The translations under genes were made by a program, and so were the position numbers. 64,000 bases of DNA from Mesotaenium endlicherianum (lineage: Eukaryota), in contig WELA01001161.1 in NCBI GenBank assembly GCA_009602735.1, positions 1-64,000 of the forward strand. Direction: 5' to 3'. The notes under the pieces are model-generated. The model was not told the DNA's origin and searched no databases. It saw only the letters and a list, made by a program, of their open reading frames with translations. Positions 1,756 through 64,000 of the stretch are shown here, one piece after another. Each line of letters opens with the position of its first letter. The first letter of the stretch is position 1.

Positions 1756-1756
1756 C

Positions 1757-40118: not shown

Positions 40119-40878
40119 GAGCGGGTCTTTCAATAGGTTTGCTAAGCACGCCGACACTGCTGAGACAGCAGAGGGCTGTTGGAATTGCGGGAAATCAGGA
40201 CATCAGAAGAGAGATTGTCCGTACCCGGATGCTTAGCAATTGTCTGCTAGCAATACGCAGGTATGCGCACATTGCAGCAAAATGGAACACTCAGAAGATG
40301 AGTGTTGGTCTAAGAACCCAAATCTGAAGCCACCATGGGTGTAGTGAAACAGATAGATAAAGTACTTAGTGAAATAGAATATTTTATCTATTCAAGACAA
40401 GGATCTTTGAACACAAGTGGTAGCTTCTTGAAAGAGAGATGGCTTCTTGAAAGTTAATATATTTTTGGATTTTGGCAAGTACAAGAGTGATCCTGGAATG
40501 TCTTTCTATGTTCTAGCTCTTGTTATATACTTGTTACATACGTAATCTCTAAGAAAGTGTATGTTGATGTGTTGGCACCCAACACATCCCAAAACTTGCC
40601 ACCTCTTTCTAGAATAACGTACACATGTCCTTTTGACCTAAAAATGGCACATTTGACTTTTGCCACATGGAGTTCTTCTAGGTCTTTCCTCTAACTTCGA
40701 AAATGCCTTGGAAGGTTCAAAGGACATGAACCAAGTTACTAGAGTACCTATTCACACTTGACTCCACACAATACTACTCCAAATATATTTGAAAACATTA
40801 AAATATATGCAAACTAATATATAATAACTCAAATCACTACATCACCCCCCCGATAGAAAAAGCGACGTCTCGGCGCGT

Positions 40879-41003
40879 CAAGTCAGGTCTTACACATGTG
40901 GAGCAAACTAGTCAACAGTTTCAAGTCAGATGCCACACATGTGAAGAGGACTAGTCAAAGGCGCCAAGTCAGGTGCTACACATGTAAGGTAGACTAGGCA
41001 AGG
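40879..41003. repeat. 3 x 43 bp degenerate tandem repeat in the 3' UTR of element B
   Basis: CAAGTCAG....ACACATGT......ACTAG.CAA units starting at 40879, 40922 and 40965. Confidence 0.8.
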
Positions 41004-41624
41004 TCGTAGGTGGTGTGACCTTATTGGCTAGCCTACTCCTTAATGATGAAGAAAATTGTACAAGTTGGCCCAGAATCTGCCACGAATTCAAAAATTTATA
41101 GCGGCCACTGAACTGCTCCAAATCTGAAAATTTGAGTGCCAGACGGACCGCGTCAAAGAACTCTACCGGGTCACCAAATTTGAGAGCATTCTAATTTCTG
41201 GGGTGTCGTTGAGAGCTGAGAGAGTAGGCACTCCTCCAAATCTGTGCAGAAACTTCTGAAAATCATAAGTCCTTCTATACTTCTCCAAATTTTGCAAANA
41301 AATTTTGCAAAGTAAGTCTCAAACTGGGCGTTGTAAGATGTTCTACCAGATTCTTGAGTTTCAGAGCATTCCAAGTTCAGGGGAGGGCACAATGTAAGAA
41401 GGCATATTCAATCCTAACAACGCCAGCAGCCTGACCCCCTTCTACTTAGAGCATCATATCTCTCTCACCAGTGCTCCAAATTGAGCAAACTTGGACTCTA
41501 AATGACCGGCTACTCATGGACTACAGCCAAGTAAATCTTCAGAATTTATTATGTACAAACCTATGACCAGTAGCAGTTTTAATTTTTCTGTCCAGAAACT
41601 GCGAGAAGAGAAGAGTGTCTAATG

Positions 41625-44600
41625 TCAATTTTTCCTCTTTCTTGTTCTTGCAGGCTGCCTCCAAGGGGTCTTCTGCTGCTTCTTGATGGTGGCAGGCTGC
41701 CTCCCTGAAGTCTTCGGGCTTCTAGTAGAGAGACTTGGGGCTGGTCCAAGATGGGGGTTGGCGGCATGGAAGCGTTTCAACTTTCTCTGAACTTTGTCAA
41801 GGTAGTGCGCCGCCACCCAACTATTCTCCGAATCTGGATATCCTTTCCACTTGATCAAGTATTGCTGCTGTCTCCTGAAATTTCTCATAGCCACTATGTC
41901 TTCCACTTCGTACTCCAAATGATCATCCACTATTGTTGGGGCTGGTGGGGTTGTCACACGTCCTGGGAACTTGTTGTCGGGTTGCACATATGGCTTGAAG
42001 AGGGAAGCGTGGAATACGGGGTCGATGTGCATAGTCTGGGGAAGTTCTAGCTTGAAAGCAACGGGGTTGACTTGCTGGATAATCTTGAAGGGTCCCAAAT
42101 ACTTGGGAGAGAACTTGCTGCCGGCAGGCCTGTTGTTCAGGGAAATGTTCTTGGATGATAGTAACACGTTGTCACCCACTCTGTACGTAATTTCTCTTCT
42201 GGATCTGTTCGCCACTCTTGCTTGAGCATCTTGCGCGTGTTGTAGAGCTTTCTTCGCTGCTGTAAGGGCTGCTTCTAATGTCTCCATAAAATCTGTGGCT
42301 GCAGGTACTTCATCATGGCCAGCCGTGAAGCTCAGTGGCGTGGTCGGATGGAAGCCATAGTTGAGGAAGAATGGGGACTCTTGGGTAGAGGCCTGCGTAG
42401 TGTTGTTGTAGGCAAACTCGAGGGGGGTCAAGTACATGTCCCAGTCTTGCTCGAGGGTAGACACGTAGGCCTTTAGAGAGGTCTTTAGGGTACGATTCAT
42501 ACGCTCGGTTTGCCCATCTGATTGTGGGTGGTAGGCAGTAGACATATCCAGCGATGTACCCAAGTTCTTGAAGAGATTTTTCCAGAAATGGCTTGTGAAT
42601 CTTGGATCTCTATCTGACACAATTCTTGATGGTAGTCCATGGAGTCGGAAGATGTTGTCAAAGATGAGTCTTGCAAGTTGTGGTGCTGTAGCCTTAGTCG
42701 TCGTGGGAATAAAATGAGCCATCTTGGTAAGTCTGTCCACCACCGTGAGTATTGCATTATGGCCTCGAGGTGTCACGGGCAAGTCCACGATAAGGTCCAT
42801 TGAAATGTCCGTCCATTGTCTTTCGGGGATTGGTAGTGGTTGGAGGAGTCCTCCCGCCTTTTGCGATGATGGCTTGATTCTTTGGCATGTGTCACAGCTC
42901 CTGCAGTACTCCTTGACTTGCTTAGACATGCCTGGCCAGAAATAAGTCTTGGCTAGAACGCCCGTGGTCCTTAGGATTCCGAAGTGTCCTCCAAGAGGGT
43001 TGTCGTGTGCTTCTCGTAGAAGCAAGAGCCGGAGGTCTAAGTCATTAGGAACACATCTCTGGCCCGTATCTTGCCTCACCCAATAATTGCCTTCTTGCTT
43101 CTTGTATGGGTCCAAGGCTGCTTCTCCGTTCTTGTAGTAAGGGTCTCTTTCATAGGCGGCTGAAAATCGAGCTTCCAGATCTGTCTTCAGGGATACCATC
43201 ACTGCATTTAATTGCAGTCTTGAGAAAGGGTCAGCCGGGTTTGTCTTTCCGGGCTGGTACTGAATCGTGATGTTGTATTGTTGCAAGTATCCGCTCCATC
43301 TTGCTTGCCTCCTTGAGAGGTACGGCTGCGTCTGGAGGTGCTTTAACGCCTCGTGGTCCGTGGTGACCAGTACTTTGCGTCCTTCAACGTAGCAGCGCCC
43401 AACCTCCAAGGCATGTACAATCGCCAATGCCTCTCGCTCCGTGGTTGTATAATTTTGCTCGGCGGGATTCAGCTTCCTTGACTCGTAGGCGATGGGCTGC
43501 AGTCCCTTGCCTTGGTCTTGAAGCAGGATTGCTCCTATTGCATAGGAAGATGCATCGGTGATGACGTGGAAGGGCCAATCTGGGTTTGGACTTGGGAGTG
43601 TGAGCACCGGGGATGTGGTCAATCTTCGCTTTAACTCTTGAAATGCCTCTTCCTCTTTCTCGGTCCATGTATATAGCCTGTCCTTCTTGTGTAGATCTGT
43701 CAGGGGGGCTGCTATGTGCGAGAAGCGTTGGATGAATTTTCTGTACCAAGTGGCAAATCCCAAGAATGACTGGAGTTCTTTCTTGGTCGTGGGGGTTGGC
43801 CATTCCTCCACCACCGTGGTCTTCTTGGGGTCTATCTTGATGCCATCAGCAGTCACGTGGAGACCTAGGAACTCCACTTCTTGTTTGGCAAACTCGCATT
43901 TTGACTCCTTCGCAAATAGCTTGTTTTGCTTCAATACTTCAAGGACTTCTTTCAAGTGTCTCGCATGCTCTTCAAGGGTCTTGCTGTAGATAAGGATGAC
44001 ATCGATGAATACCACCATAAATCTGTCCAACATGGGCTGAAATATGGTGTTCATCATAGTCATGAAAGTTGCTGGCGCGTTGGTGAGTCCAAATGGCAAG
44101 ACCATGAACTCAAAATGTCCATATCTTGTCCTGAATGCCGTCTTCTCTATGTCCGGTTCTGCGATGCGAATCTGGTGGTAGCCGCTCCGTAAGTCAATCT
44201 TCGTGAAGTACTTGGCTCCAACCAGCCGGTCCATGAGCTCATCCATGCGCGGCAGCGGGTATCGATGCTTGATGGTGAACTTGTTGAGGGCGCGATAGTC
44301 CACACACATCCTCAAGGTACCATCTTTCTTCTTGACAAATAGCACCGGGGCTCCAAATGGCGACTTGCTAGGTCGAATGAAGCCATGCTCCAGTAGCTCC
44401 TTGATTTGCTTCTTGACTTCGTCTAGCTCCGTGTATGACATTTTGAACGTAGGCCGAGAGATGGGCTTGCTTCCGGGCTCCAACTCTATCTTGTGGTCTA
44501 CGAATCTTTTGGGGGGTAGGCCCTTGGGCAATTCCGGGGAGAACACTTCTTTGTAGTCCTCAAAGACTTCTTGTATCTCCTTGGGAACGGGGCTGCCTTC

Positions 44601-45233
44601 TTGACTCTCGATGTCTTTCTTGATGTCTTTTGGCGTGATCAAGGCCAAAAGAAGCTCGTGTCCCTTCCTCACAAGTCTCTTGAGTTGGAGGGCGGACAAT
44701 AGTATCTCGTGTGCCGGCTTCTGGATGTCTTGGGTCTGGATATTCTGGATTGCGCGCAAAATACAGATTCTTGAAGTGATGTCATTCTTGATCTTGATAG
44801 TACCGGTCCTCCAATCAACTTGGGGGTTGTGCTTGGTCAACCAAGGCGTCCCTAGGATGACGTCGTACTTGCCCAATTGCATGGGGGAGAACACTACTCT
44901 ATCCTTGAAGGACTTGATAGAGAGTGCCAAGGGGTACGTCTTCTTGGAAGGGGTAGTATAGGAGAATCCATCGGGCATCATAATCTCCTCGTCGTGGTCA
45001 AGAGTTCGCATAGTAATACCGTGCTTGGTGGCAAAATCTGCAGCAATGAAGTTGCCTTGAGCTCCGCTATCCACCAAGATGTGGACCTTCTCTCCTCCAA
45101 GGTAACCTCTCAAACTCATTGGGGCTGGAACGTCGTCTTCAACGGGGGTCTCCACCTCACTTGGCGTGTTGCCTTCTCGTGAAGTGGGTCTTGGGGTGGT
45201 AGGCTCCTGGCCTACCGGCGCTGTCCGTTTTTT
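41625..45233 (-). CDS. pol: Pol (PR-RT-RNaseH-INT-chromodomain), family B; RT motif mutated (FIDV)
   Basis: [22 protein letters not shown] in place of FIDD, ITDAS, HHCC, DDE core, GPF motif and chromodomain YEVEDI...YLIKWKGY...NSW. Confidence 0.95.
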
Positions 45234-46492
45234 GACAACTTTTTGGGGCATGAAAGTGCACGATGGCCCTTTTCCTTGCAATAGAAGCATAGTCCAGCCG
45301 TCATGAGAGCTTCTTTTTCAGCCGGGGAGAGTCTTGCTTTCACTCCTTGCTGGTTTCTTGCATCATAAGTGTCATTGGAGGGTCTTCCACTCTTCCGGGC
45401 AGCCGCGGGGTCCCTTTTAATAACTCCGATTTCCATGGGTGTGGGTCCAGATTCGGATGTGGAAGGGGCTGCGTACACCCGCGTCGTCGGTACCCGTGAA
45501 GATGAAGGCACGGAGTGCTTGAAATCCAAGGTATCCACCTTTTGGGCCACTTCAATGATCTTTGAGAAGTCCGTCAAGTCGCGTAACTCCACTTCCTTTG
45601 CCACCTTGGGTTTGAGGCCAAAGATGTAACGGTCAATCTTCTCCTCGAGAGACATGTTGGGGATCTCAAGAGTGAGGGCGTGAAATCTGGATGTATACTC
45701 TTGAACGGACGTCGTTTGCTTGAGATGGTGGAGCTTTCCTCGGGCAATCTTCTCCGCATTGATGGGCATGAATTGCTTCTTGAGGGCCTCACGAAAATCT
45801 GCCCATCTTGCATATGATGGTGGGGGCTCTTGGCCGAGCATGGGGTGCGCCATAGCTTGATATATAGCCGCTTGATAGTTACGCCACCATGATGTTGCTG
45901 CTCCTCTAAGTAAGGTAACGGCAAAGGGAACGTAGTCCTCCTCGGGTACTTCAAGGAACGCGAGGTACGTCTCCACTTGGTAGAGCCATAAATTCAGGTT
46001 GGCACCTTTCCCGGGGTTGAAAGTGTCGGGTTTGCCGGGCTTGATGAGTTTCCTTGCTCTCGTTGGCTCTTGTGGAGGCGCTTGAGCCGGGGCTGGATTT
46101 TGAGCATTGCTCGCAATAGGGGCAACCATGGCAGCCATAGCTTCTCTTGACGCTTGCACGGTTGCTTCATAGGTGGCCAAGCCCACTTGGTTGTGGACGG
46201 TCATTAGGAAGGCTGCCCACTCATTTGCGGGAACTCCTTGTGGTGGGGTCAACTTTGCTATAGCGGCTGCCACGGGATTTGACGGTGCTCCTCCTTGTGG
46301 TGCTTCTTGTTGTTGCAGATTTCCTTGAGTAGGCTCTCCCATCGCCGCTGGAGGAGGGTGTGCTCCTCCTTGTGATGCTTCTTGTTCTTGCAGATTTTCT
46401 TGAGTGGGCTCTCTCATCGGCGCTGGAGGAGGGTGTCTTGGAGAGGAAGGGCTTCCTTCGAAAGCTTGCTGTTGGTCTTGAGGATCGGCCAT
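45212..46492 (-). CDS. gag: Gag (426 aa), family B
   Basis: [27 protein letters not shown] and zinc knuckle [14 protein letters not shown]. Confidence 0.95.
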
Positions 46493-49466
46493 CTTCTTGT
46501 GCTACCAAAGTGCCTAGCTCCGATACCACTGTAGTGAAACAGATAGATAAAGTACTTAGTAAAACAGAATACTTTATCTATTCAAGACAAGGATCTTTGA
46601 ACACAAGTGGTAGCTTCTTGAAAGAGAGATGGCTTCTTGAAAGTTAATATATTTCTGGATTTTGGCAAGTACAAGAGTGATTCTGGAATGTCTTTCTATG
46701 TTCTAGCTCTTGTTCATATACTTGTTACATAAGTAATTTTTAGAAAAGTGTATGTTGATGTGTTGGCACCCAACACATCCCAAAACTTGCCACCTCTTTC
46801 TAGAATAATGTACACATGTCCTTTTGACCTAAAAATGGCACATTTGACTTTTGCCACGTGGAGTTCTTCTAGGTCTTTCCTCTAACTTCGAAAATGCCTT
46901 GGAAGGTTCAAAGGACATGAACCAAGTTACTAGAGTACCTATTCACACTTGACTCCACACAATACTACTCCAGATATATTTGAAAACATTAAAATATATG
47001 CAAACTAATATATAATAACTCAAATCACTACAATGGGCTAATGCTGCCACGAAAGAGGCAGATAAGGGTAAGAAAAAGGAGAAAGATAACTCTGGTAACC
47101 GGAAGAGTAACCAGAAGTATAATGCTATGAGTGCAGAGATTGCAAAGTTGAAAGCTCAATTTGCAAGACTAAATGTGCCTAATGTCTATTATGATGCAGA
47201 TGTGACCAAAAAGACCATCTGTAAAGGCGAGAAGCTAACGCCTGAGAAGGCCGTGGCTGCAACGGCGGCAGAGCGCGCAGATCATGACCGCCTGGTTCCA
47301 AGGAATGCTGGGAAGCTTCCTCAGACCTTCCGAATCACTCTCGATGAGAACGAGATTGCGCAGCTACGACAAGCCAAGCCTGGGCCACGCAAGACATTTA
47401 GTTTTTCGCTGGAAAAGCTGAAGGCTCTGGTGGAACACCGGATTCAGCACATTCCTTGTCTTTCGCTCGCTGATCTGCGTCTTACGTATCCTTTCACGGT
47501 TGAAGAAGCCGGACGGCAGCTGGACATAGCTGAGGAAGGCGCAAACAGTGCTTCGCTGCCTACTAATTTCAGCACTGTGAGAGTGCACAACAAGGATAGA
47601 GTTTTGACGTTCAACGAATGGGCCGCTCCCAATATCCTATTGGACACTGGCGCACAGCCAATTATCTTGGGAAAGCAAGCTGTGAAAGCTCTGGGATTGA
47701 CGGCAAGGGACCTGAAAGTAAGTCCTTTTCAGTTGAGGACTGCATCTGGGCAGATTTCAAAGTCTTGTGGGATTACTCGCAAGCCTGTGAACTATAGACT
47801 CATGAGGAGGCATTTCTCTAAGTGGATAGAGGTAGTGCCTCTGACTGCTAAGGAGAGTCTAGGGACCGCGGAAGCGCTCCTCAATGGTGTGATTGTGCGT
47901 CATGGAGCTCCAGCAGAATTGCTGACAGACCAAGGGTCTGAGTTCCAAGGGTCTTTTCAGAAACTCTTGAATAGATGCTTCATCGATCATTGCACTACGT
48001 CTAGAGATCATCCGCAAGCAGATGGTCTGGCAGAAAGGATGGTGCAAATCGTTAAGTCTGCTTTGCGCAAGTTTTGCCTTGAGCACGACAAGCGTGACTG
48101 GGATCTGGCCCTGCCATGGCTGGTTATGGGTTACAGATTTAGCAAGCTGGCTGCCTTGGTGAATTACTCACCATATCAGATACTGTTTGGCAGAAGTCCA
48201 GTAGTGCCCAGCGGCATCAAGCAGGAGATTGAACACGTGAAAGACCTGGACAACCCTGAGGAACTGCTAAAGGTGATGGTACGTCGTAAGGCGTTATTTG
48301 AGCGCATGATGCCGGCTGCACTGGACAATCTGAAAATTGCACAGAAAAGAGATACACAGCGTTACGCCAGAACGCGACACGTGAGTTACCTCCTACAGAT
48401 GACGCAGATTCAAGAAGAAGACTTTGTAGACCGCAAGCGCCAGACCAAGATCACCATCGACACCAGCTCAGGTGCAGTGATCTTACGCGTGAAACATGCG
48501 TTTCACAATGGTGTGTTAGAACTGGAAGGTTCTGATGGTAAAACCATGAGAGACCACGTGCAGAATTGTTCGCTATGCCATTTGCCGAATATTGATCCTA
48601 CGGTTAGGGTTGTGCCCAAGGAATTGGTGCCAGCCACGCCTTGTGCCAGCTGCGAAGTGCTGGATGATCACGAAGCAATGGTAACTTGCCATAAGTGTGG
48701 TGCCCGTTGGCACACTTTCTGCATTGGCGAGGAAGAGATTATGGCAAGACAATGGGAATGCCCTGACTGCCTTCCTAAACCCCTAGCCGCGGGGCTGTAA
48801 AATAATAGCTTTCAGCAGAAAAGGCAGGGACGCCTCAGCTGAAAGGGAGGGGTGTAAGAGGAATTAAGGCAAGGCAAGTATTTTTAAATTTTCTGCTAAG
48901 GCTTAAGATAAGCAGATGGTGAGGGCTGAGTAAAGTAGAACAAAGCCCTGAGAGTTGGTCACGGTTGCATGGTGCAAGTTCAGGAGCCCAGGGATGGGTT
49001 AACCCTGGTAAGGCTTGTCACCGACACACGTGCAAAAATTGATCGACCATGTTTGCCCGCACATGAGGAGGGCCACCGACACATCAACCAGGTCAAAGGC
49101 ACACGAGCTGAAAGGCCACGCACGTGCCGAGGGACCGACACCGTTAGGCACGACAGCTGTCGCGACTACTATCCGTTTGACGGTGCCGCACGCGCAGCGC
49201 AAGCTACGGCCACCCAGGTACGGAAAGTCAACGTTGACTCACCGACCACTTGACTGATTTCGTCGCTGTCAACGGTTATGTCAGCATCAAGACCACTGGC
49301 GAGGTGTCAATGTCAATGTGCCCCACACCCAGGAATGGGAGAGGTTTTGACAGCATAGACAACCGTGAGACTAGAAGCTGGGGATCAGAGATGAGCCGCC
49401 CAGCGGGTACCAAGTCTAGTACTGTGTGACTGGCAGATTAAGCCAGGTCATGGCCGCAATGCCAAG

Positions 49467-50532: not shown

Positions 50533-51363
50533 TGAAATGAATCGTCTTACCAAATAGGCGATTAACAATTAATAAAGATCTTTATATCAGCAACTAATCT
50601 TATGGTATTTCCGTTAACTAGTTAAACGGCAAAGGACAATACACTAGCAGGGAATAATACTCGTAAGTCAAATGCGAGTAAACTAGCATCAATGATGCAA
50701 GTCAGTAAACTCATACATAAGCAAGGTTAGAAGACAGTGCGTATCAATGGCTTCTCGCCTTGGATTCAGATCTCTCTCAGTAAGCTGTACAAGAGAGTTG
50801 GCCTCGTTTCCGAATGCCGAACTCGAGAGCAATGCCTAGCATATGTACATGGAATGAGTTTACTGTTCAACGGTCAGTGCGATGGCACCGCCTACCCGGG
50901 AGTTAACCACGTTGGTAGGACCTCGGTTAACCAAATCCACCGCCATCTCCCATCATCCCGAATAGCCATCCATCATAGGGATGTCATCTGGCTATTCATC
51001 TAGCATATCGCACTTAGATGCATATCAAGGCAGTTCGCTGCTACCGAGTACGGAAGTCAGCTGGCTGTCAAAGAATGGGTCAGCAAGCTGACTTATATGG
51101 ACTTCAGCCTGCTGCTTCCGGCTGAGTCATTAAACTGATAATTATGTAAAGTCCAGCAGACTGACTATTAACTAAAGTTCAGCAGGCTGAACTTAATTAA
51201 CTATTATATTTAAATGAATATTATATCGACTAATATACTGATTCATTACAATCCCTCCAACTTAACTTGTTGTCGCCTCGACAACATTAATGTGCAGAAA
51301 TTTTAAATAAGGGAACTGAACCTGACCAGCCTCCCTTACTGACTGCCTCTTCAGCGTGTCACC

Positions 51364-53040
51364 TTAAGGGGTTGTTCCTGGGGCTTCAGGGTCAGGAGAC
51401 GGAGATCTGGACCTAGATCTGGACAGCCCTCTAGGTCTGTCAGCTGGCCTTCTAAAGAACCCTGTTTGCTCTAAAGTTGGCCCTCGAGGAGAACGGAGGA
51501 TGGTGGCCTGCTCTTCAACCACTTGGGTGATGATACCCACATAGACAGGCATTCCAGTAGGATGCTGAAATACATTGGCTAGAGATACATGCCCCTGAGC
51601 GGAGGGGGAGGCTGGCATACCTCTGGCCCACCCGCGTGTCCCTCTTCTGGCACCCCTGTCCTCTGGGGATTTCTGCCTGTGTCTGCTGCCCAGTACCGTC
51701 AGATCAGCTTCTTCCCCTGCTTGGGCAGGTGGGCTGGGGGAGCGAGCGCGGGGTCCAGTTGTCGCCATAACGGGGATCACATTCCAAACACCTGATCGTG
51801 GTTCATTAAGAAGCGCCCCTACCTGTCCCTGGGTATCCTGAGTACCTGCTGCTGATGCCTCTCCTCTGCCCTGTTCTTCTTCCTCAACCTCCTCATCCTC
51901 CTCCTCGGAGAGAGTAGGGGTCTCGTCCACTAAGTCGTCCTGCTCCCTAGTAGACATGGAGTAGTCTACCGACCTCCCTTTCTTAGGGCGCGCTGGAGGT
52001 TGCTTGGCCTTCAGCCTACTGATATCTATCCGGCCTGCATTCTTTGCCCATTTGACAAAGGCATGCTTTCCCTTAGAGAAGTACTCTCTTCCCCTCCTCC
52101 TATGTTCCTTGGTCTCTGCATTCATATTGCTCAGGCATCCATTCAGCCTGGGGTCCCAAGGGGCAATGTGAGGTGGTAGGATGAGATAGCCGTCTAGGCC
52201 ATAGTGGAAGTCATCCGGTTGGGCTCGGTCACACTCCTGCTTCTTATTTGTGACGGTCATCCACCTCCAGTCTGTTGGCTGCTGGTAGTACTGGGGTCCG
52301 TGCTCAGCCTTCCTCAGTTTACACGGGAACCAGTGGGGAGAGAACATCTGCTGTCCTGCTTCCCTGGCCAAGTACTCCCAGCTCCTTCTCTCAACTTCAT
52401 TGTAAGCTGGCAGGAGTGTGAGGTAGAATACCGTATCCTTAAAGCTATCGGGCCGCATGCTCACCATCCGGATGAGTCTCTGATCTCCCACTATTCCCGG
52501 TATGGGGACCGGCTTGTCCTCTGAATCATCTGCGAGATACCGGGCCTGCTCTGCTGTATAGCCCACCATCTTAGCATAATCTTCGTAAAGGACCACGCCG
52601 GTGTGTGTCTCGATGTACCTGTCCAGTGCTGTAGCTCCTTCCTTCTGTAGCAGTGTTGTCTGTTCCAGCCTGTTGATCTCCTGGGCTGCCAGCAATGCTT
52701 CCTTCAGGTTATCGAAGTTTTGGCCACCCACCACAGTATACCTGTAAGTGGCCAAGCTCTTCTGTCTGTCCGCTTCAATCTTTTTTCTTTTCTCCTCTTC
52801 TGCCGCTGCCGCTTCTTCTTGCTGTTTCTTCTGTCTCTCCTCCTCAGCCTTCCTGAGGTTTTCCGCTTCCTGATCCTTCTTCCTCTGTGCCTCTTCTGCC
52901 GCCTCTTGTTGTTTGCGGACCCTTTCTTGTTCTCTCCTGGTGAGGGACGTCGCCGCCAGCTCCTTCTGGTATTGCTCCATTGTCCTCCTGGCTTCTTCTG
53001 CCTTGCGCTTTCTGTCCTCCTTTTGTGTGGTGGGCGCCAT
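51364..53040 (-). CDS. ORF3 of family A: unknown ~558 aa protein with a charged coiled-coil N terminus, aromatic-rich core and acidic/RS-rich tail
   Basis: Uninterrupted 1.7 kb sense ORF between pol and the 3' LTR. The likely ATG at 53040 sits 1 nt after a CAG acceptor. No signal peptide or TM segment is evident. Confidence 0.8.
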   Translation of the reverse strand: MAPTTQKEDRKRKAEEARRTMEQYQKELAATSLTRREQERVRKQQEAAEEAQRKKDQEAENLRKAEEERQKKQQEEAAAAEEEKRKKIEADRQKSLATYRYTVVGGQNFDNLKEALLAAQEINRLEQTTLLQKEGATALDRYIETHTGVVLYEDYAKMVGYTAEQARYLADDSEDKPVPIPGIVGDQRLIRMVSMRPDSFKDTVFYLTLLPAYNEVERRSWEYLAREAGQQMFSPHWFPCKLRKAEHGPQYYQQPTDWRWMTVTNKKQECDRAQPDDFHYGLDGYLILPPHIAPWDPRLNGCLSNMNAETKEHRRRGREYFSKGKHAFVKWAKNAGRIDISRLKAKQPPARPKKGRSVDYSMSTREQDDLVDETPTLSEEEDEEVEEEEQGRGEASAAGTQDTQGQVGALLNEPRSGVWNVIPVMATTGPRARSPSPPAQAGEEADLTVLGSRHRQKSPEDRGARRGTRGWARGMPASPSAQGHVSLANVFQHPTGMPVYVGIITQVVEEQATILRSPRGPTLEQTGFFRRPADRPRGLSRSRSRSPSPDPEAPGTTP

Positions 53041-53307
53041 CCTGCACATGTAACCAGGGCACAAGTTAGTAGGATATGGACCTTTGTCATAGGGATTGCA
53101 GGAAGTATGTTAGTATTTAGTATAGTGGCTTCGCTGCTGTTTACCTTACAGGATGATTGCTAAAAGTTGACGTAGTTGCGATGCGCTACACATAAACGTA
53201 TGAGTGTGTTTTTATCGCTCTCGCTCACTAACTGTCATATATTTTCCCCTCCAACTTAAATGGAGACAGGACCGCCTGTCACCTTCCCGTGTCAACTGAA
53301 ATGACAG

Positions 53308-56300
53308 TTATGGAGGGACTCCAGCGGCCCGAAGGTGGAACCGTGTCAACGCCCCTTTGGCATTGGTCAAGTGGTCCTTAAACTCCCAAGTGTCCCCAGA
53401 GGCATCGTAACCCTTCCATCGAATGAGGTATTTCATGACATATTTAGACGATCGACGGACCGAGCGAGCGTCTAAAATCTCATCGACCTCATATTCCTCA
53501 GGGTCGCCGTCCCGGACAGCGGGGACCGGTCCCGGTTGGACAGGGAACCGACCTGTGAACAGTGTATCACCTTTGATGTACGGTTCCAGGAAGGAGACAT
53601 TAAAGACCGGGTGCCCCTTGTATTCAGCTGACATGTTCAGTTTGTAAGCATTCTGACCGACACGACGGACCACCGAATATGGACCGACCCAGACAGGGCC
53701 AAGCTTTTTCTTGACCACACCAGGGAGGTACAGGTGCTGAGAATGCAGTTTGACTAAATCCCCCTTGGAAAATGTCAGTTCCCGACGGTGTTGATTAGCG
53801 TATTTTTGTTGGTTTTCTTGGGCCGTGTGCAAGTTTCGTTGGACTTCTGACAGGGTGTCAGCAAACTCCTGAGTTAACTGGAGGGAGACCGGGTTGTCAA
53901 TCCCTTCAGGGTGAGTTAAAGATTCCCCTAGCACATCTAGAGGAGACTTAGGGACTCTACCCAGGCTGAGTTCAAAAGGAGTTTTGCCCGTTGACGCGTG
54001 CACCGCACTGTTGACCGCAAACTGAATTTGAGGCAACAGGTCATCCCAATTATCTTGTTTTTGGTTAATATATGCTCTCAGCACCTCCTGCAGAACTCGG
54101 TTAGTTCTTTCAGTCTGCCCATCAGTCTGAGGGTGGTTTGCTGTGCTGAGCAGCTGTTTGACTCCCATTAACCCCATTAAAGCTCTCCAGAACTTAGAGG
54201 TGAATTTTGAGTCTCTGTCTGAGATGATATTAGAAGGGAGCCCATGTTGGCATACTACATGGTTGTAAAACTGTCTCGCTGTTTCGAGTGCAGTCACTTT
54301 GACAGTTGTGGGGATAAAAATGACCATTTTTGTCAGTTTATCCACGACTACCAGTATTGAATCATGCCCGTTGGCAGTTCTTGGTAGTGAGACCACCCAG
54401 TCCATGGATATAGTTTCCCAGCGTCCCGCTGGGATGGGTAGCGGTTGCAAGAGACCTCCGGGTGGTGTGTGCCGAGACTTATTTCTCTGACACTGGTCAC
54501 AGGACTTGACATATTTCAAGACCTCCCGGGGTAACCCCTCCCAATGATAATGTTTTGCCAGTTTGCCAACAGTTTTGGCCTGCCCCAAATGTCCACCCAG
54601 GAGACTGTCATGAGCTTGACTCAGTAAGAGAGACCTTATTTCCAAATTATTAGGAATGACCAGCTTCAGCCTGCCTGAAGTGGTTTCAGTCACCCAGACC
54701 CCTCCCTTGAGCTTATACCCGAGTGCAGTAGCACGACACACACCAGTAGTGGGGCTGGGCTCAAATGTTGGGTCAGAAAGGTAGGCTTTCCTAAGTTGTT
54801 CAAGGAAGGACTTTTTCACCTTTAGTGAAGTGAGTGCACACAGGACTTTATCTACAGCATGCTGACTAAAGTTCCTTTCTTGCAAGTCAGGTCTTCTAGA
54901 GAGTGCATCAGCAGGATTCAACTTCCCTGGTTTGTAGTCGATCTGGACTTGGAACTGCTCCAGCATCTGGCTCCAGCGGTTCTCCCTCCTCGACAGCTTG
55001 GACTTCTTCTGAAAGTGGGTCAGAGCTAGATGATCTGTAATCACCTTAAAAGCTTTACCATGTAAGTATGCTCTCCACTGTTTGAGTACATGAATGATAG
55101 CTAGCAGCTCTTTATCATGCACTGAGTAATTAATCTCCGCTGGATTAAATTTCATAGACTCATACAACACAGGATGCCACTCCTGCCGTACCTTACCATC
55201 CTTTGTGGTTTTGTCAGCAGGCTGCAACAAAATAGCACCCATGGCAAAATCAGAGGCATCAGTAACCACCTGCACCGGTTTGCTGGGGTCATACACGGCT
55301 AGCACTGGGGCAGAACAAAGGGCATCTTTAAGGGTCTGGAAGGCAGCCTGCTGCTCTTCCCCCCACACATACCCGATGTCTTTCTTAGTAAGGTCAGTCA
55401 GTTTACTGGCCTTTGTGGAATAATTCTCAATAAATCTCCTATAGTAGTTAGCCAACCCGAGGAAGGATCTAACTTCAGAGACAGACTGTGGTACTGGCCA
55501 GTCCCTTATGGTCTGGACTTTCTTAGGATCCACACTGATGCCCTCTTTACTGACAACGTGGCCTAAGAATTCAATACTTTCCTTAAAGAAATCACACTTG
55601 CTCATTTTAGCATACAAGTGATTTTTCCGCAGAGTGTCCAGCACTTTCTTTAAGTGTTCAGTGTGCTGAGCTTCATCTTTAGAGAAAATTAAAATATCAT
55701 CCAGGAAAACTTGCACAAACTTATCCAAATAAGGTCTGAAAATGTCATTCATAGCACCCATAAAGGTAGCAGGAGCATTAGTCAGTCCAAATGGCATCAC
55801 GTTGAACTCATAGTGTCCATAACGTGTGCGGAAAGCAGTCTTGTGTTCATCCCCCTCAGCAATTCTGATTTGATGATAACCACTCTTGAGATCTATCTTA
55901 CTGAACACCTTAGCGCCAGACAGGGTATCAAGCAAGTCCTCGATTCTGGGTAAAGCATACTTGTTCTTTACTGTAATTCTGTTCAGGGCTCTGTAATCCA
56001 CACACATCCGCATACTGCCATCCTTTTTCTTAACAAATAGGATGGGTGCGCCGTAAGGTGATTTACTGGGAGAAATATAACCATTTTCCTCAAGCTCTGC
56101 AATCTGTGTTTTCAACTCCTCGCTCTCCACATAAGACAAGCCATACGTGCGTTGCCAAGGTGGCTGACTCCCAGGTAATAGATCAATCCTATGATCTACT
56201 TCCCTCTTAGGGGGTAGTCCTGGAGGCATATTAAATACATCAGTGTACTGAGCAACAATTTTTGCAGCAGTAGGGTGCTCCGGAGGGCTTACCTTTTTCT

Positions 56301-57117
56301 CAACCACTTCTTCAGGTTGAGGAGGTACCTCTCTTAGCAGCAGACAGAACATTCTGTCTTCCTTCTGGTTCCAGCTTTTGACGAACTCCATTGCATTCAG
56401 CAACTTGCATCCTTCTGGAAGCCTCTTCTTTTCCTTCATTTGCCATCCACACAGGACAAGAGGAAGAGCACTGGTGGGTGCCAAGTCAGTCTGCCCATCA
56501 CTGGCTCCTCTCACTTTAACTGTACCTCTGCTCCAACACACTTCAGCTTGATGTCTATTAAGCCAGGACCTGCCTAGCACGAGATCATAAAAGCCAGTGT
56601 TGAGTACCTCAAATGTAAGCGTTTCAGTTAGAACTGCAATGCCAGAACCTAACTGGACCTCAATAGGCTTGGTTATAACTCCTCCCGGGATACTTGAGGC
56701 ATCTCCAAGGAATATTTTTCTATTCCCTTGGGTGACAGTAGGCAGCCTTAGCCGCTTAACTAAGTCCTTGTGAATAAAAGTATGTGACGCCCCTCCGTCA
56801 ACAAATGCCCTCACCTTCCTACCTGCAATCATGCAATGCAGTAGGATAGGGGGGACTGTCTTTTCCTGACTTTCGCATTGTTCTCCTGACGTAGCAAAGA
56901 AATGTTGGACATCAGGTGGAACAAGAGCATCCAGAGTGTGCACTCTCTGGACGTCTATATTACTGATGGTCTCCTTTATCTGTTTGTCAGGCATGCATAG
57001 TGAATCCAGTTCAGCAGGACCCATAATACCTGCTACGAGGGCAGCTAGTGACGACTCACTATCTCTAGCATCCTCACAGTCAGTAGACTGGATTACTGAC
57101 TGTTGCTGTCTTTTAAA
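53308..57117 (-). CDS. pol: Pol (PR-RT-RNaseH-INT-chromodomain), family A, apparently intact; -1 frame relative to gag
   Basis: [35 protein letters not shown]...CDQC, SMD/SDRD/TER, GPY motif and chromodomain YEVDEILD...YLIRWKGY...DTWE. The frame stays open upstream of the annotated ATG (57024) to the slippery site. Confidence 0.97.
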
Positions 57118-58571
57118 GGCTGGTCTTTTCTCTCGACCTTAGGCAGGTGCTTGACCGGACACTGTTCTCTGTAGTGGCCTTTCTGCTGACAATGGTAGCA
57201 AGTAGATTTTGCTGAGGCTGGTCTCGGCTTAGTCCTACCACCACCCCTTCCATAGCCACCTCGAGAGGGACCACCTCTACCTCTAGACTGAATAGCATTG
57301 TACTCATACTCATATTCATCACCCTGATTATCCTCAGCCTGGTCTCCTTCAACTGCATTGTAGGAACCGTGGGGCTTTTTGACAATCTTAGACACCAAAG
57401 CGTTACTCTGGCGCTTGTGATTGAACTGCTGCTGATCCCAGGCGTCAGCATCCTGGATCAAGTCAGCCAGTTTCTCATACTTTTTCTCAGCAAAATGACC
57501 AGAGACCTCGGATTTCAAGCCATACCTGAAGTATGCTATCCTATACCGTTCTGGCAAATCAGGCTGCTTCATCATGTTCTCTTGGAACTTTTGAGCAAAC
57601 TCAGCAACTGAAGTGGTCTGCTTCAGTGTCAGGGAGATCATCGCATAGATAGCTTTCTCCTGCTGGTTGATGACATCAAACTTCTCATGCAACTTCTCGA
57701 CAAACTCTACCCACGTAGGGTCACCGAGTTGCCGAGCCTTACGCTCTTCCTTCCAGTAAAGCCACCAGTCTGCGGCACTGCCTTTCAGTAGCGCACCGGT
57801 GTGCCTGACCTTCTCGTAATCTTGCAGTTCTGGGTAGTTCTCCAGCCACTGCTCAACATCCGCGAGAAACTTGATCAGGTAATATTTTCTGTTTCCCTCA
57901 GGATCATAGTCCTGGGGAGGTTTCGGCTTGGGCTTACTAGGCCCTCGGCCACCACCACTAGTGGTGTGAGACCCCAGTTGGTCTCTGTCCCGGAGTAGGG
58001 ACATTATGATTCTTTTGTCCTCCTGCTGGGACTGATACATGGTCGCCATTTGCGACTGCATCTGAACGAACAATGCTCCCAAGTCTACATTTTGGGGTGG
58101 TAGATTAGCAAATGCAGCAGCAGCATTGGCATCTACTCGCTGAGTAGTGTCCTCAACAATCCCTCTTGCTCCTGCAGCAGCAATTCCTGCCGCATTCAGC
58201 CGGTCACGTATTTGACCTAGGGGTACATTGAGTTGTACGGCAGGAGGTGGGTTCAGAACATTGGCCCTTGATGCCATAAGTTCTTCAACAGTGCGCTCGT
58301 CAGCTGGCTGTCCTTCCCTCCTTTGTATATCTTCAGCGGCCTTTGCTACTTGTTCAGCTTCTAGTCTGGCTATCTCCTCCTCAGCTTGCTGAGCTGCGAC
58401 TGAGGCAATAGCAGCTGCCTCATCTGCAGCCTCCCTAGCTGCAGTATCCGCTACTGCTTCCGAATAGGTACGGTTTCCCGCTACATGGCTTTCCGCCTGG
58501 TTTTCGACATTCTCGTTATCCTGGTTCTCCATGTCTCGGGAGTTGCTAGTTTGAGACCTTGTCCTTACCAT
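57093..58571 (-). CDS. gag: Gag (492 aa), family A copy A2
   Basis: Identical protein to 244-1722, with a CCHC knuckle. Confidence 0.96.
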
Positions 58572-59341
58572 ACAAAGAAGACTGTGGTAACTGCTCCGAT
58601 ACCACTCGACTTACCAAATAGGCGATTAACAATTAATAAAGATCTTTATATCAGCAAGTAATCTTTATGGTATTTCCGTTAACTGGTTAAACGGCAAAGG
58701 ACAATACACTAGCAGGGAATAATACTCGTAAGTCAAATGCGAGTAAACTAGCATCAATAATGCAAATCAGTAAACTCATACATAAGCAAGGTTAGAAGAC
58801 AGTGCGTATCAATGGCTTCTCGCCTTGGATTCAGATCTCTCTCAGTAAGCTGTACAAGAGAGTTGGCCTCGTTTCCGAATGCCGAACTCGAGAGCAATGC
58901 CTAGCATATGTACATGGAATGAGTTTACGGTTCAACGGTCAGTGCGATGGCACCGCCTACCCGGGAGTTAACCACGTTGGTAGGACCTCGGTTAACCAAA
59001 TCCACCGCCATCTCCCATCATCCCGAATAGCCATCCATCACGGGGATGTCATCTGGCCATTCATCTAGCAGGTGGTACTTAGATGCATATCAAGGCAGTT
59101 CGCTGCTACCGAGCACGGAAGTCAGCTGGCTGTCAAAGAATGTGTCAGCAAGCTGACTTAAGTTGACTTCAGCCTGTTGCTTTTGGCCGAGTCATTAAAC
59201 TGATAATTATATAAAGTCCAGCAGACTGATTATTAACTAAAGTTCAGCAGACTGACTACTAACTAAAGTTCAGCAGGCTGAACTAAATTAACTATTATAT
59301 TTAAATGAATATTATGTCTACTAATATACTGATTCATTACA

Positions 59342-60753
59342 CTGGACGATGGTGCACGTCAAAGGTGTACTCCTGCAAGATGAGCGCCCACCGTGCGTAC
59401 TTGCCTGTCAAGCGCTCCGACGTCATGAGCCACTTGAGTGGCTGATGGTCGGTGACCAAGCAGAAGTGGGTGCCGTAGAGATAGTGCCTGAAATGCACAA
59501 TCGCCCATACTGCTGCCAGGCACTCCCCCTCATAGGAGCCGTAGTTGCCCTTGGCACGGTTGTTGCTGCGGCTGGCGTACGCCACCACATGCTCGAAGCC
59601 GTCATGCTCCTGCACCAGCACAGCTCCAAGCCCTGCCTGCAACCAGTCGGTGTGGAGGATGAAGAGCTTCTGATAGTCAGGCCGCCGTAGTACTGGGGCG
59701 CTCACCAACAGCTCCTTGAGCTTGTCAAACGCTGCCTGCTGCTCTGGTCCCCATACGTAGGCAACGCCCTTGCGTAGCAAGTCGTTGAGCGGCTTGGCCA
59801 GCTCGCTGAACCCAGGCACAAAGCGGCGATAGCAGTTGGCGATGCCAAGGAAGGCCCTCAACTGTGAGAGGTCGATCGGCGGCGGGATGCCTGTGATGGC
59901 CGAGATCTTGGCCAGCTGAGGAGCCAAACCACTGGAAGACAGAAGATGCCCGAGGTACTCCACCTTCCGGGTCCCAAAGGTGCACTTGCCTGGATGACTC
60001 TTGAGCCCAACGGCCTCCAAGCGGTCCAGAATTGTGGTGATATGCGCCACGTGCTCCTCAAACGTCTCACTAAAGACGAGTACGTCATTGATGTAGCACC
60101 GGGCAAAGGAGAGCCCTGCCAGCTCCTTATCCATGACTCCTTGGAAGGTGGCAGGAGCGTTCTTCAAGCCGAAGGGCATAACCCTCCACTCGTAGAGACG
60201 CTGCGATCCCCAAAAAGCCGTCTTATGCTGGTCCTCCTCCGCAATGGGTATCTGGTTGAAGCCCTGCCTCAAATCCAGCATCGAGAACCAAAGTACAAGC
60301 GCCGATGTCGTCGAAGATCTCGTCAGGGGTCGCCATAGGGTATCTGTCCTACTCAGTGACCTCGTTAAGATTACGATAGTCACCGCACATCCTCTTCTCA
60401 GACCAGTTGCCTGAGGCGTCCTTCTTAGCTGGCATGACTGTGGGCGCAGCGTAGGTGGAGGTAGACTCACGAATGAGCTGACCCTCCTCTAGCTTGCCTG
60501 TCTGCGTGCTGATCAGGTTGTCCTCAAAGCGGCTGTAACGATAGCGCTTCTGGAAGATGGGCACGTCTGTCTGGAGGGGTATCCTCATAGGGTTGCCTGT
60601 GTAGCGCCCAAGATCGTGCATGCCGCTGGCAAAGCTGGCACTGCGCCGTGCATCCAGCAACACCGTGAGCTGAGCAGCCTGTGCCCCAGTGAGAGTCCCC
60701 CCCAGCTTCCAAGTAGGGACAGCTGGTGGTGGCTCCTGCGCTACGGCTGGCAC
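59342..60753 (-). pseudogene. pol: Reverse transcriptase and RNase H of family D
   Basis: KRMCGDYRNLN, DRYPM, LDLRQGFNQIPI, MPFGLKNAPATFQ, YIND (mutated YIDD), LHTDW..GLGAVL, YEGECLAAVWAI and LVTDHQPLKWL. Confidence 0.93.
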
Positions 60754-60777
60754 CTCCTGCCCTGCTGCTGGGGTGAT

Positions 60778-62688
60778 TTATGGGGCCGCAGGCGTCACCT
60801 GTCCTGCAGCTGGCTGCACTCGGCCTGCCTCGAGTGCCCTCTCCTCGGCAGCTGCTGCCATCTGCCCTGCACCACCTGTAGGCGGCGGAGAGCGTGGAAA
60901 AAGAAACGGGGAACGAAACTCCCTGGGTCGCTGTGAGGACTCCTGTCTCCTCCTGCCCCCCCCCAACGAACCATAAAAACAAGGACCTGGACGAGGCGCA
61001 GGCGGCTGCTGGGAAGCTGGACCCTCGCGCTGGGAATGCCAGGTCGTACCAGGCGGGGCGCGGTCGTCGCCGTCGGAATCTCGATCCATGGCGTCATAGA
61101 ACTGGTCCATCTCAGGATGACGAGCCTGGGCGTAAAGGGGAGTCAGGGCCTGTGTTTGCAGGAGAAGCCACGTCAAAACGTTGGCATCGATAGCCTGGCA
61201 AAGGAGACGCACGCGGTTGACCTCGGTGATGCCGTCCACCTGTGTGAGGTGCGGAGGGAAGCCCATCGCACGCTCCATCTCCACGGCACGGGGTCGCTGG
61301 AACATGCCAGTCTTGAGGTCAATGATCATGCCGCGCTGGTCGCCCACGTAGGCCGCGCTGTCGTAGCGACTCACGAACGTAGGAAGCGCCCGCGTGACGT
61401 CGTGGATGACCTCACACTGGGCCTGAGAAGAATGCGGAAGGGCGACCACACGCTGGGCCAAGCGCGCCACGTCGAGGATGGAGTCAATGTTGCGCGTGTG
61501 GCGTGGATGTGCGGCCGCTAATGCCTCAAGCGTGCCTGGCATGGCCAGGTTGGTGAAGTAGGCGCGCACACGATGCGCGAAGGAACCAATCTGGGCAGCG
61601 TTGATGACTGCCTCACGATCGACGTAGCTGTTGCAGGGGGAAAAGTCTGCGCTGACGTTGGGCCAATAATTGTGGCGGACAGCCACGTTCTCCAACACCC
61701 AGGCGAGCGTGTGCGGAGGCTGGCGGTCCTCAACCATGTTGAGGACGCGGAGCAAGTGCCAGTACAAGGCCGTACGCAGGTCACCGAGCGCGCTGCCCTG
61801 TCCCGCAATGGAGAAGCCCTGGCACTCCCAGCCAGCAATGATGAGGTCAATGGGCCCGAGGCGCGTGATGTGCTCGGCGGTAATGTCGCGTATGTCCATG
61901 GGCCAGTTAGTCTGGGCGTGGTAGAAGGCATGCTCAGGGAAGAGGTCGGGGAAGCGCTCGTGGCATAAGGCCATCTGCCTGCGGGCGACCTGCTGCGCCT
62001 CGCCATTGGGGTCCACGTAGACGTACCGACGTACGGGGATGCCAGCCTGCAGGGTGGCCAACAACCCTATCGCAATGCCGGCGAAGAGCTCGACGAGGAC
62101 AATGCCGTCGGGACGTTTGTCGAGCTGTGCGGTGTAGATAGGCATAGGAAGGGGGCGACAGCCCAGGGCGGGGTTACCGGCCTGCGCTGGCGGTGGATAG
62201 GAGCGCAGCAGACTGTGCTGATGGGGCGCCATGCGGAGGGCCGCCACTGCGAGCTTTGCGTAGTGGCGAGTAAGTCGAGGAATGCGCTCGAGCAGCGGCT
62301 GCGGACGAGCCGTGCGAGAATGTGCCTGATAAGTGCGCCAGCGCGCACGCGCGTCCTGCGAGGCCTCCTCGGGCACTGGGCGGGCCAAAGCCTTCGCGTC
62401 GCGGACGCACTGCTGCTGCCACCGGTCCCTCGTCCTGTAGTCTGCGTGATGTGAAGCGGCGTGGGCCAGCTGCTCTGTGGCGGTGCGCTGGGGCAGCTGG
62501 GAATGCTGATCAAAGTACGAACGCTGACGCTCGCGAAGATCCGCCTGAAGGGGCACTGTGCAGACGGAGCGCTCGTCCCAATGTGCTGCCTGTTGAGGAC
62601 GGACGAGCTGACGTGGGGCAAGTTGGACTCGCGGGCACAGCGACGAAAGAGATGCGAGTCGGACGCGCTCCCGCTGGCTCCGCTGCAT
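60778..62688 (-). CDS. C5 cytosine DNA methyltransferase domain (core ~61170-62105) of the family D polyprotein
   Basis: Motif I VELFAGI, motif IV DLIIAGWECQGFS (catalytic Cys), motif VI VLENV, motif VIII HRVRAYFTN, motif IX EMERAMGFP and motif X-like RLLCQAID, all in canonical order. Confidence 0.92.
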   Translation of the reverse strand: MQRSQRERVRLASLSSLCPRVQLAPRQLVRPQQAAHWDERSVCTVPLQADLRERQRSYFDQHSQLPQRTATEQLAHAASHHADYRTRDRWQQQCVRDAKALARPVPEEASQDARARWRTYQAHSRTARPQPLLERIPRLTRHYAKLAVAALRMAPHQHSLLRSYPPPAQAGNPALGCRPLPMPIYTAQLDKRPDGIVLVELFAGIAIGLLATLQAGIPVRRYVYVDPNGEAQQVARRQMALCHERFPDLFPEHAFYHAQTNWPMDIRDITAEHITRLGPIDLIIAGWECQGFSIAGQGSALGDLRTALYWHLLRVLNMVEDRQPPHTLAWVLENVAVRHNYWPNVSADFSPCNSYVDREAVINAAQIGSFAHRVRAYFTNLAMPGTLEALAAAHPRHTRNIDSILDVARLAQRVVALPHSSQAQCEVIHDVTRALPTFVSRYDSAAYVGDQRGMIIDLKTGMFQRPRAVEMERAMGFPPHLTQVDGITEVNRVRLLCQAIDANVLTWLLLQTQALTPLYAQARHPEMDQFYDAMDRDSDGDDRAPPGTTWHSQREGPASQQPPAPRPGPCFYGSLGGGRRRQESSQRPREFRSPFLFPRSPPPTGGAGQMAAAAEERALEAGRVQPAAGQVTPAAP

Positions 62689-64000
62689 GGGCCCTGCGCG
62701 TGTTGCGTGCGAACGAGGATGACGGTCGCGGAGGCGCGCAGCGGTGCGGGCCGCCTTATGAGGAGGTGACCCAGACGGCCCGTTGCCGGCTATGTGACTG
62801 CGCGGGACGTTGGTAGGCTAGCCAGGCGGCGTCTGGTATAATGCGTGAGCTGCAGTGGTGGAGGAAGACTGTGCGTCATACTAGCGGGTGCGGAGATCGC
62901 GCGGACCGTCATACGGTGGTGTGACTGAGCGCGGGCGCGTCTCGCGCAAAGGAGTGACCTCTCTCTCCTCGCAAAGAGGAGGGGCCTCCCGTGCGTCCCT
63001 GGGAGTGTCGTGCAGAGGCGTGACCTCGCGGGCAGCCCTGGTATGCTCGCGGATCGAAGTGACCTCGCGTGCGCGCCGGTCTAGTGGCAAAGTGCGGCGT
63101 GCGAAGCGTAGACCTGGCCCGGCGTAGGGGGAAGGACCTGTACGCCGAGGACCGAGGATGCTGGTCCTGGCCACTGTCTGCTGCGCACGTTTGGCTCGCG
63201 GGTCGATGGCGGAGGCGCGACCTGGCCAGCCTGTGCTCAGGCTGTTGCCAGCGAACAAGTGCGTGACGTCACGGCACTCGTTGCTGGTCAAACAGTCGTG
63301 CTGTATCGGACGACTAGGCCCGCCGGCGCATGGATGGGCTCGACGGGGATGGGCCGTGGTCTTGTGAGAGAGAGAACTGAAGCCGGGAGGCCCTGTAGGC
63401 TGGCGTCGGACGCGAGCTATAGGCGTGAGCGGCGATGGCTCTGCTGACGGCTGGGCTGCGGGCTCCTCTGCGGCCTCCTGGGACCACTCCTGCCACTCCT
63501 CCTCCTCGCTGCTCAATGACGCGTCGTTGGACCTGCCTGGGAACGCTGCCTGCCTCATGGCCTCATCCTCAGACGTGGTAGTGCGTGGCCACGAGTCGCC
63601 TGTCCTGTGCGACGGTGCGGGTGAGGGCAATTGGGATGCCATGCGGTACTGGATGGCGACCCCTACAGGCACTTCATGCCGTACGCGGACGTGTGATCTT
63701 GAGGAGGGTCCGCTCGCCAGCCGCGCACGCGTCAGGTGCGACGGCTGCTGGCGCGGCTGCCAGGACTGGCGCAGGTGTGGTTGCTGGGGAGCTGCCAAGT
63801 GGCGCCTCCCAATCGCTCCTGGGGTTGCGGGAGCTGGTGTCCGGTCCAACATCCATGTCGGTGTTGGCTGCCTTGGACGCCGCTCGCGACGCCCTCCCCC
63901 CGATGCGTGCGTACGCCGAAGCCCCCGTAGCGCGAATTGCGTCAGCGCGAGGGTTTTGTGCGCAGCCAAGGTTTAAGCCCTGGCTTTGCGCAACCGTGAG

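Follow-up and report, generated by a model that had tools for sequence, protein, structure and literature searches.

A decayed retrotransposon copy, very probably of the Gypsy-DNMT3 kind, in the zygnematophyte alga Mesotaenium endlicherianum

The window analysed here is a 64,000-nucleotide stretch of contig WELA01001161.1 of Mesotaenium endlicherianum, to which all coordinates refer. Towards its end, on the minus strand, a cytosine DNA methyltransferase (DNMT) domain precedes a reverse transcriptase (RT) and RNase H (RH), and we conclude that this part of the window is very probably one decayed and truncated member of a multi-copy retrotransposon family, Ty3/Gypsy in type and of the streptophyte Gypsy-DNMT3 kind. 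Its features, together with the neighbouring long terminal repeat (LTR), are as follows, with the evidence in brackets (X2 is a sequencing run and layout A a domain order, both described below; ORF, open reading frame; HMM, hidden Markov model).

63951..63995, minus strand: hairpin segment, in higher copy than the remaining element; possible terminal-repeat edge or 5' leader (RNA fold and contig counts)
62884..63972, minus strand: low-complexity ORF rich in R, P, A and S, in the DNMT frame, without Gag or protease similarity (ORF list, Pfam, Atlas, HMM, BLAST)
62818..62883, minus strand: two in-frame stops (62881-83, 62818-20) that other copies do not have (frame reading and X2 contigs)
62104..62817, minus strand: linker before the DNMT, with no recognisable domain (codon-usage score favours the DNMT frame)
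61141..62103, minus strand: DNMT3-like C5 cytosine methyltransferase domain with unpermuted motifs (PF00145, PDB ranking, model, alignment)
60781..61140, minus strand: low-complexity linker from DNMT to RT (ORF list and frame reading)
60778..60780, minus strand: TAA stop private to the window copy (X2: 7108/7108 of depth, 28 contigs, differs at 60780)
60291..60777, minus strand: N-terminal part of the RT in the DNMT frame, which has a stop (60349-51) and ends in a one-base frameshift (near 60290) (BLAST to layout-A relatives)
59343..60287, minus strand: Ty3/Gypsy RT core (YIND, 60084-95, for YxDD) and RNase H, its C-terminal end cut off (Pfam, identity, tree)
58606..59341, minus strand: chromovirus 5' LTR, outside the DNMT element, inserted at the RNase H end (Pfam, repeat search, flanking contigs)

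One minus-strand frame spans 63972 to about 60291, interrupted by stops at 62881-83, 62818-20, 60778-80 and 60349-51. Within it, the 679-aa ORF 60781-62817 carries the DNMT domain, which is intronless, at residues 239-559. A previous sequence-only reading of this DNA had reported a full C5-DNMT motif set in this ORF, a TAA at 60778-60780 beyond which the same frame continues into the RT N-terminus, and an upstream ORF in the DNMT frame; all three hold, the last at 62884-63972 rather than 62881-63969. It had missed the second RT stop (60349-60351), the frameshift near 60290 and the YIND. The RT N-terminal part (60291-60777) matches layout-A relatives by BLAST (1e-26 to 1e-20), and over 59343-60287 Pfam finds RVT_1 (7e-26) followed by RT_RNaseH (1e-34), both past their cut-offs, that is, a Gypsy-type RT and then RNase H, in a different frame from the DNMT owing to the one-base shift near 60290. 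This RT-RNase H region is up to 61% identical to layout-A loci versus 38% to a chromovirus of the window.

The methyltransferase profile PF00145, which like RVT_1 had been suggested as a check, matches at 6e-11 (42.8 bits, cut-off 22). The motifs FAGI, GWEC (catalytic Cys at 61822-24), ENV (61684-92), HRVR and ERAMGFP stand in unpermuted order, so the domain is not a DRM. Ranking against solved structures in PDB with the single sequence places DNMT3A, DNMT3C and DNMT3B at the top (1.6e-13), with DRM and HhaI at about 1e-3; with a family profile the scores are 1e-26 for DNMT3A, 1e-13 for DRM and 5e-10 for HhaI. The best Foldseek match of a predicted model (pLDDT 93, pTM 0.92) is again DNMT3A (5e-20, TM 0.81 by target length). 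By these score rankings of sequence, profile and fold, the domain is nearer to DNMT3 than to DRM, DNMT1, DNMT2 or bacterial methyltransferases. The catalytic domain of mammalian DNMT3A/B is thus its best match in both sequence and fold among solved structures, although identity is about 22% and the window DNMT has neither PWWP nor ADD and sits in a retrotransposon polyprotein.

Is the domain likely to be an enzyme? Residues were counted as alignment columns in 157 relatives with a span of at least 270 aa, drawn from 182 scanned proteins, some of them near-duplicates. The catalytic Cys is present in 156/157, the motif VI Glu in 157/157, and the two motif VIII Arg in 155/157 and 154/157. Such near-invariance across domains that are 30-40% identical is as expected from selection for catalysis, and the DNMT family, judged by these columns, looks selected for it. 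The residue preceding the catalytic Cys is Glu in 86/157 and Pro in 61/157; WEC, which the sequence-only reading had singled out as a peculiarity, is on this alignment the commonest form and the norm in the family. By contrast with its relatives, the window copy has Cys in motif X (position 61200) where 147/157 carry Gly; the substitution is private to the window copy.

Other copies of the element were seen as short contigs from sequencing runs (four DNA-type runs, X1, X5, X6 and X14 included, plus X2 on 60540-64000); none spans the element, and their depth is not a copy number. They reveal a multi-copy, diverse family, with 2545 X2 contigs on 60540-64000. Besides the stop at 60778-80, the other three stops are private to the window copy: 6318/6318 of X2 depth differs at 62819 (stop 62818-20), 12369/12556 of X2 depth at 62883 (stop 62881-83) and 17409/17586 of X1 depth at 60351 (stop 60349-51). 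Within 60540-64000 the X2 contigs show no indel at 60% or more. The 605 codons upstream contain two stops, both private, where each of the other two minus frames has 10; shuffles of these codons average 12.5 stops, and 0/2000 had two or fewer. The other copies being free of the window stops, the family encodes a single open linker-DNMT-RT frame. The earlier proposal of one linker-DNMT-RT-RH frame therefore stands for the family as far as linker, DNMT and RT are concerned, and fails for the window copy, where the RT core and RNase H are out of frame.

The window copy itself is dead, with a stop in the RT, a frameshift, YIND and a truncation, and it adds no new mechanism. No covering contig of X5 or X6 has the extra base at 60290, but in X1 only 3599/14934 of depth lacks it; likewise, the YIND position differs in all covering X5, X6 and X14 contigs, but in 14004/31056 of X1 depth. 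X2 has 124 majority differences from the window copy, and 79 of these, being A>G or T>C, reflect C-to-T decay of the latter. Among 34 private C-to-T sites, which are the best-supported rows of two tables and not every site, 14 lie in CG, 12 in CHG and 8 in CHH contexts, against 28, 23 and 49% available; CG or CHG accounts for 26/34 where 51% is expected (p 0.002). Judged by this pattern, the copy has undergone deamination of host type at CG and CHG sites, such as host methylation of transposons would leave. One X1 contig joins 61204, at the end of the DNMT, to 59345, at the RNase H end, a deletion derivative that keeps the DNMT without the RT.

To place the family, we scanned 1.84 billion protein representatives (clusters at 50% identity). 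The best retrotransposon relative of the DNMT domain scores 2e-61; 112 clusters score below 1e-30 and 425 below 1e-10. DNMT-carrying retrotransposons had been described in the sequence-only reading as rare and linked to charophytes; the link is correct, the rarity is not supported. Two layouts occur among 161 proteins. Layout A, protease-DNMT-RT-RH-integrase, is clear in 8 and partial in 11; layout B, RT-RH-DNMT-integrase-PHD, is clear in 70 and partial in 22, and 50 are fragments. Layout B is thus the commoner (examples are P0003, P0004, P0018, P0020 and P0172). Among 30 clusters looked up, the layout A members with an organism name come from Klebsormidium nitens, Mesostigma viride and Closterium, and the layout B member with one from Haematococcus lacustris. 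In P0002, P0007, P0166 and P0294, all single natural proteins, DNMT is joined to RT in the order of the window; P0166 and P0294 are intact single polyproteins of the window layout, so the DNMT is not an independent insertion, which would have refuted the earlier proposal. P0166, P0294 and P0007 have an rve integrase and no tyrosine recombinase match.

The two layouts also separate in phylogenies. In an RT-RH tree of 63 rows, with the two window chromoviruses as outgroup, layout B forms a clade (99/100) and the window RT falls outside it, among the layout A rows; a clade of layout A plus the window is not rejected (p-AU 0.51). A DNMT tree of 119 rows, made by a quick method with fragments excluded, divides A from B with one change. 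As both trees are without DNMT-less Gypsy lineages and host DNMT3, a single capture followed by relocation and two captures are inseparable in them. A metagenome scan seeded with A-type patterns returned 80 loci, 76 of which have the DNMT before the RT.

Five long loci (L102, L104, L115, L128 and L137) carry a repeat A 5' of the coding region and repeats B-A-B 3' of it, and not a canonical element between LTRs as had been envisaged. These full-length relatives have TG...CA ends (TGTCA at the start, ACA at the end; the L102 element is 5628-14942), and 4/5 are flanked by a 4-bp target duplication, the end of L115 having been picked from four candidates. Together with the integrase features of the relatives, the 4-bp duplications argue for insertion by integrase and not by recombinase; membership of DIRS/Ngaro was accordingly rejected, the relatives carrying an rve integrase, no recombinase match and the duplication in 4/5. 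At their inner B/A junction the full-length relatives have ACA-nn-TGTCA or something close to it, much as if att ends had been joined. This suggests that integrase inserts an intermediate that is permuted and has two repeats; a literature search found no such reading of these junctions. From these relatives we infer that the Mesotaenium family probably has a downstream integrase-PHD, split A...B-A-B repeats, TG...CA ends and 4-bp target duplications.

Gypsy-DNMT3 elements have been known since 2018 from a related alga: KnitGypsy-Dnmt3 of Klebsormidium nitens has Gypsy domains with DIRS-like A...B-A-B repeats, according to the accessible text of de Mendoza et al. (2018; PMC5890265). Mesotaenium is, relative to that text, a further example, from a second charophyte class. 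The likeness covers an intronless, unpermuted DNMT3-like domain that shares the Pol frame of a Gypsy element with RT and RNase H, and a charophyte host; the A...B-A-B repeats are seen in full-length layout relatives. As far as the published description goes, the window element differs in its algal class (Zygnematophyceae), in having EC and not PC in motif IV, and in being a dead, truncated copy known without its own ends. The K. nitens protein GAQ93235.1, which we take to be KnitGypsy-Dnmt3, has a Gag knuckle-protease-DNMT order and is 33% identical over 329 aa; the domain order shared with the window element is read from this protein, but the window element has at least 605 protease-free codons before the DNMT versus 135 aa there.

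More distant parallels exist. SymbioDIRS-Dnmt3 and SymbioLINE-Dnmt of Symbiodinium also have a DNMT3-type domain that shares an ORF with an RT, and they too show two domain orders, as do the window relatives; they use a tyrosine recombinase or are LINEs, however (PMC5890265, accessible text), whereas the window relatives have an H2C2-rve integrase and 4-bp target duplications. EpiLTRs, from Euglena gracilis and Cymbomonas tetramitiformis, are likewise of LTR class with a C5 DNMT in pol, but also possess a DAM domain plus a chromodomain and have a DNMT that is sister to DNMT4; in its available part, the preprint sets them apart from 'streptophyte Gypsy-DNMT3' (bioRxiv 10.64898/2026.05.21.726589). 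Neither a DAM domain nor a chromodomain is matched in the window part of the element (Pfam) or in the scanned full-length relatives, and EpiLTR membership was excluded on this ground.

In the sources accessible to us, DNMT-carrying Gypsy elements have so far been described from one alga, with an enzyme test that was inconclusive there. Our literature search, with subscription papers outside its reach, found no publication on layout B and none on such an element in Mesotaenium. The range of relatives suggests an old and widespread lineage, with K. nitens at one of its tips, and not a local capture. The multi-copy family of a cultured zygnematophyte, with dozens of intact relatives in two layouts that keep the catalytic residues, offers a panel for testing self-methylation of retrotransposon complementary DNA (cDNA).

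What can be said of the missing ends? The DNMT element is interrupted at 59342, within RNase H, by the LTR 58606-59341, which leads via a primer-binding-like site into a Gag ORF (57096-58610) and a chromodomain Pol (53311-57138); the repeat recurs on the same strand at 1757, 39400 and 50533 and inverted at 49467. Two X5 contigs continue past 59342 with letters unlike the LTR, which, read by eye, end the RNase H region in the usual way. The label 'LTR retrotransposon' had been given in the sequence-only reading; since the adjoining LTR belongs to the chromovirus, no such label is observable for the window copy, and there is no integrase beside the RNase H because the chromovirus insertion removed that end. 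A search for the remainder of the element across the chromovirus gave nothing: the outer flanks of the LTRs 58606-59341 and 50533-51250 form no target duplication, and the window holds no second DNMT match. At the other side, the 5' end lies beyond 64000, and neither ends nor Gag, protease or integrase of the element are seen in the window.

The long upstream frame requires separate consideration. Neither protease nor Gag was found in any frame of 62100-64000 by Pfam, our own protease HMM or Atlas, or by tblastn to the 80 loci, and the frame 62884-63972 has no D[TS]G motif and no BLAST match to 210 relatives. Certain heptamers act as slippery sites in +1 frameshifting; of five such candidates, 0/5 were present for a programmed +1 frameshift from the open frame 63677-64000. 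In two of the relative loci the protease ends 1236 and 1244 nt before the DNMT, and rescanning with relaxed settings gave weak protease matches in 7/10 further loci. The hairpin at 63951-63995 has an RNA fold z of -2.6 (1/200 shuffles equally good), and X2 contigs number 79 at 63969, and 19 diverge at 63951. Either a long disordered linker was added, with Gag-protease lying beyond 64000, or the family has lost Gag-protease; were the hairpin a repeat edge, it would favour the loss. Extended to the whole family, that second course gives a reading we consider improbable: a Mesotaenium offshoot with neither Gag nor protease, in which a disordered extension of 600 codons, fused to DNMT-RT-RNase H, starts directly after a terminal repeat that stops near 63951, would be mobilised in the particles of other elements. 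It would derive from an old Gypsy lineage, spread across green plants, whose Pol has had an active DNMT3 in either of two positions (ahead of RT in streptophytes; in chlorophytes, Haematococcus for one, after RNase H and ahead of integrase) and which integrates as a permuted A...B-A-B unit, duplicating 4 bp of target.

We return to the reading of the family as Gypsy-DNMT3 elements with a functional enzyme. The position of the DNMT in Pol leads us to propose that it would be made together with the RT, packaged in the particle and first to meet the new cDNA; its kinship with DNMT3, that it would methylate CG sites of this cDNA de novo, before integration. The new copy might then arrive pre-marked, resembling CG-methylated host DNA. 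Taken as a whole, the mechanism, in which the packaged DNMT of active copies would methylate CG sites of cDNA prior to integration, seems to us moderately likely. Self-marking by a packaged DNMT was already hypothesised in 2018, and the DNMT3 domains of SymbioDIRS-Dnmt3 methylate CG de novo in yeast (PMC5890265, accessible text).

Several observations weigh against these readings. The nearest tested enzyme, KnitGypsy-Dnmt3, gave no methylation in yeast, a result its authors call inconclusive (PMC5890265, accessible text). Glu replaces the usual Pro in motif IV, which might affect the predicted catalysis. Observed/expected CpG is 0.68 in RT-RH, 1.00 in the DNMT and 1.03 upstream, next to 0.28 and 0.67 in the two DNMT-less window chromoviruses; the element is not CpG-depleted and so bears no compositional trace of self-methylation. 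Three RNA runs labelled as the same species (read at 6, 13 and 24%) gave 4, 14 and 17 reads on the element, mostly partial matches at the 64000 end, and with no control host gene mapped this shows silence only weakly. Part of the family may share the frameshift and YIND, or the short contigs may hide differences. Gag, protease, integrase and own ends of the Mesotaenium family are not seen in the window, and the 1.8 kb upstream is protease-free whereas 62/80 relative loci have a protease, mostly 387-631 nt upstream. Finally, the DNMT tree sets the window domain beside layout A weakly (SH-aLRT 59, long branch).

The failure in yeast and the lack of CpG depletion would also fit a domain kept mainly as a DNA- or chromatin-binding module, for cDNA handling or, together with the PHD finger, for targeting, and transferring methyl groups only weakly or as a side role. 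The Pro of the PC motif is replaced in 96/157 relatives, and the DNMT sits at two different places in Pol, both in keeping with such a role. Selection for catalysis, by contrast, would predict the near-invariance seen in the catalytic Cys, the Glu, the two Arg and the Gly of motif I among such diverged domains, and we regard the module reading as unlikely. A little less likely still is a domain that is catalytically active but self-restraining, silencing new or resident copies and thereby limiting copy number, to the benefit of the host and thus of the element. A self-restraining role has been raised for DNMTs in elements (PMC5890265, accessible text), and the near absence of RNA reads and the CG/CHG bias of private C-to-T changes would agree with it. 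Against this, the family is abundant (2545 X2 contigs), the 34 sites are not the complete set, and transposons of K. nitens ordinarily receive CHG methylation and silencing from their host (PMC5890265, accessible text), so the C-to-T pattern needs no enzyme of the element. From the stop at 60778-80 and the unfound upstream protease it might be argued that a Gypsy RT fragment lies by chance beside a DNMT gene of host, bacterial or viral origin, or beside a mobile element of its own, but this hardly credible reading is refuted by other copies, to which that stop is foreign, and by intact relatives that fuse DNMT and RT in the same order (P0002, P0007, P0166, P0294), the domain being moreover intronless and its best viral match 8e-14 (4/64 parts scanned) versus 2e-61 for retrotransposon relatives.

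Another element of the Gypsy-PHD lineage lies on the plus strand at 36706-49466. It has a Gag-like ORF (38187-39404), followed by two nested insertions, and an ORF at 47019-48797 in which a protease is in frame with an integrase core, clipped, and a PHD; DNMT, RT and RNase H are absent. Its repeat 36706-37014 recurs at 49158-49466, where a purine tract and roughly 300 unique bases containing a palindromic CA-nn-TG junction come before it, an arrangement that fits A...B-A(-B) ends. Nested in this element is a second chromovirus (40340-47032, minus strand) with intact Gag (45215-46501) and Pol (41628-45317) and LTRs 97% identical.

The chromovirus that truncates the DNMT element (53311-59341, minus strand; also 1-2477, minus strand) has intact Gag and Pol ORFs and is very abundant among mapped contigs. 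Its LTR pair is without a shared target duplication, suggesting recombination between copies, and an extra 581-aa ORF (51367-53109), with no clear Pfam match, sits between its pol and 3' LTR. A solo LTR at 39400-40118 is flanked by a GAGCG duplication. Finally, a GH3 beta-glucosidase gene (26433-30435, minus strand), one exon of which matches jgi/Mesen1/5595 of Mesotaenium endlicherianum with 100% identity across 99% of 315 aa, contains an exact 1795-bp internal duplication beside N runs, probably an assembly artefact.

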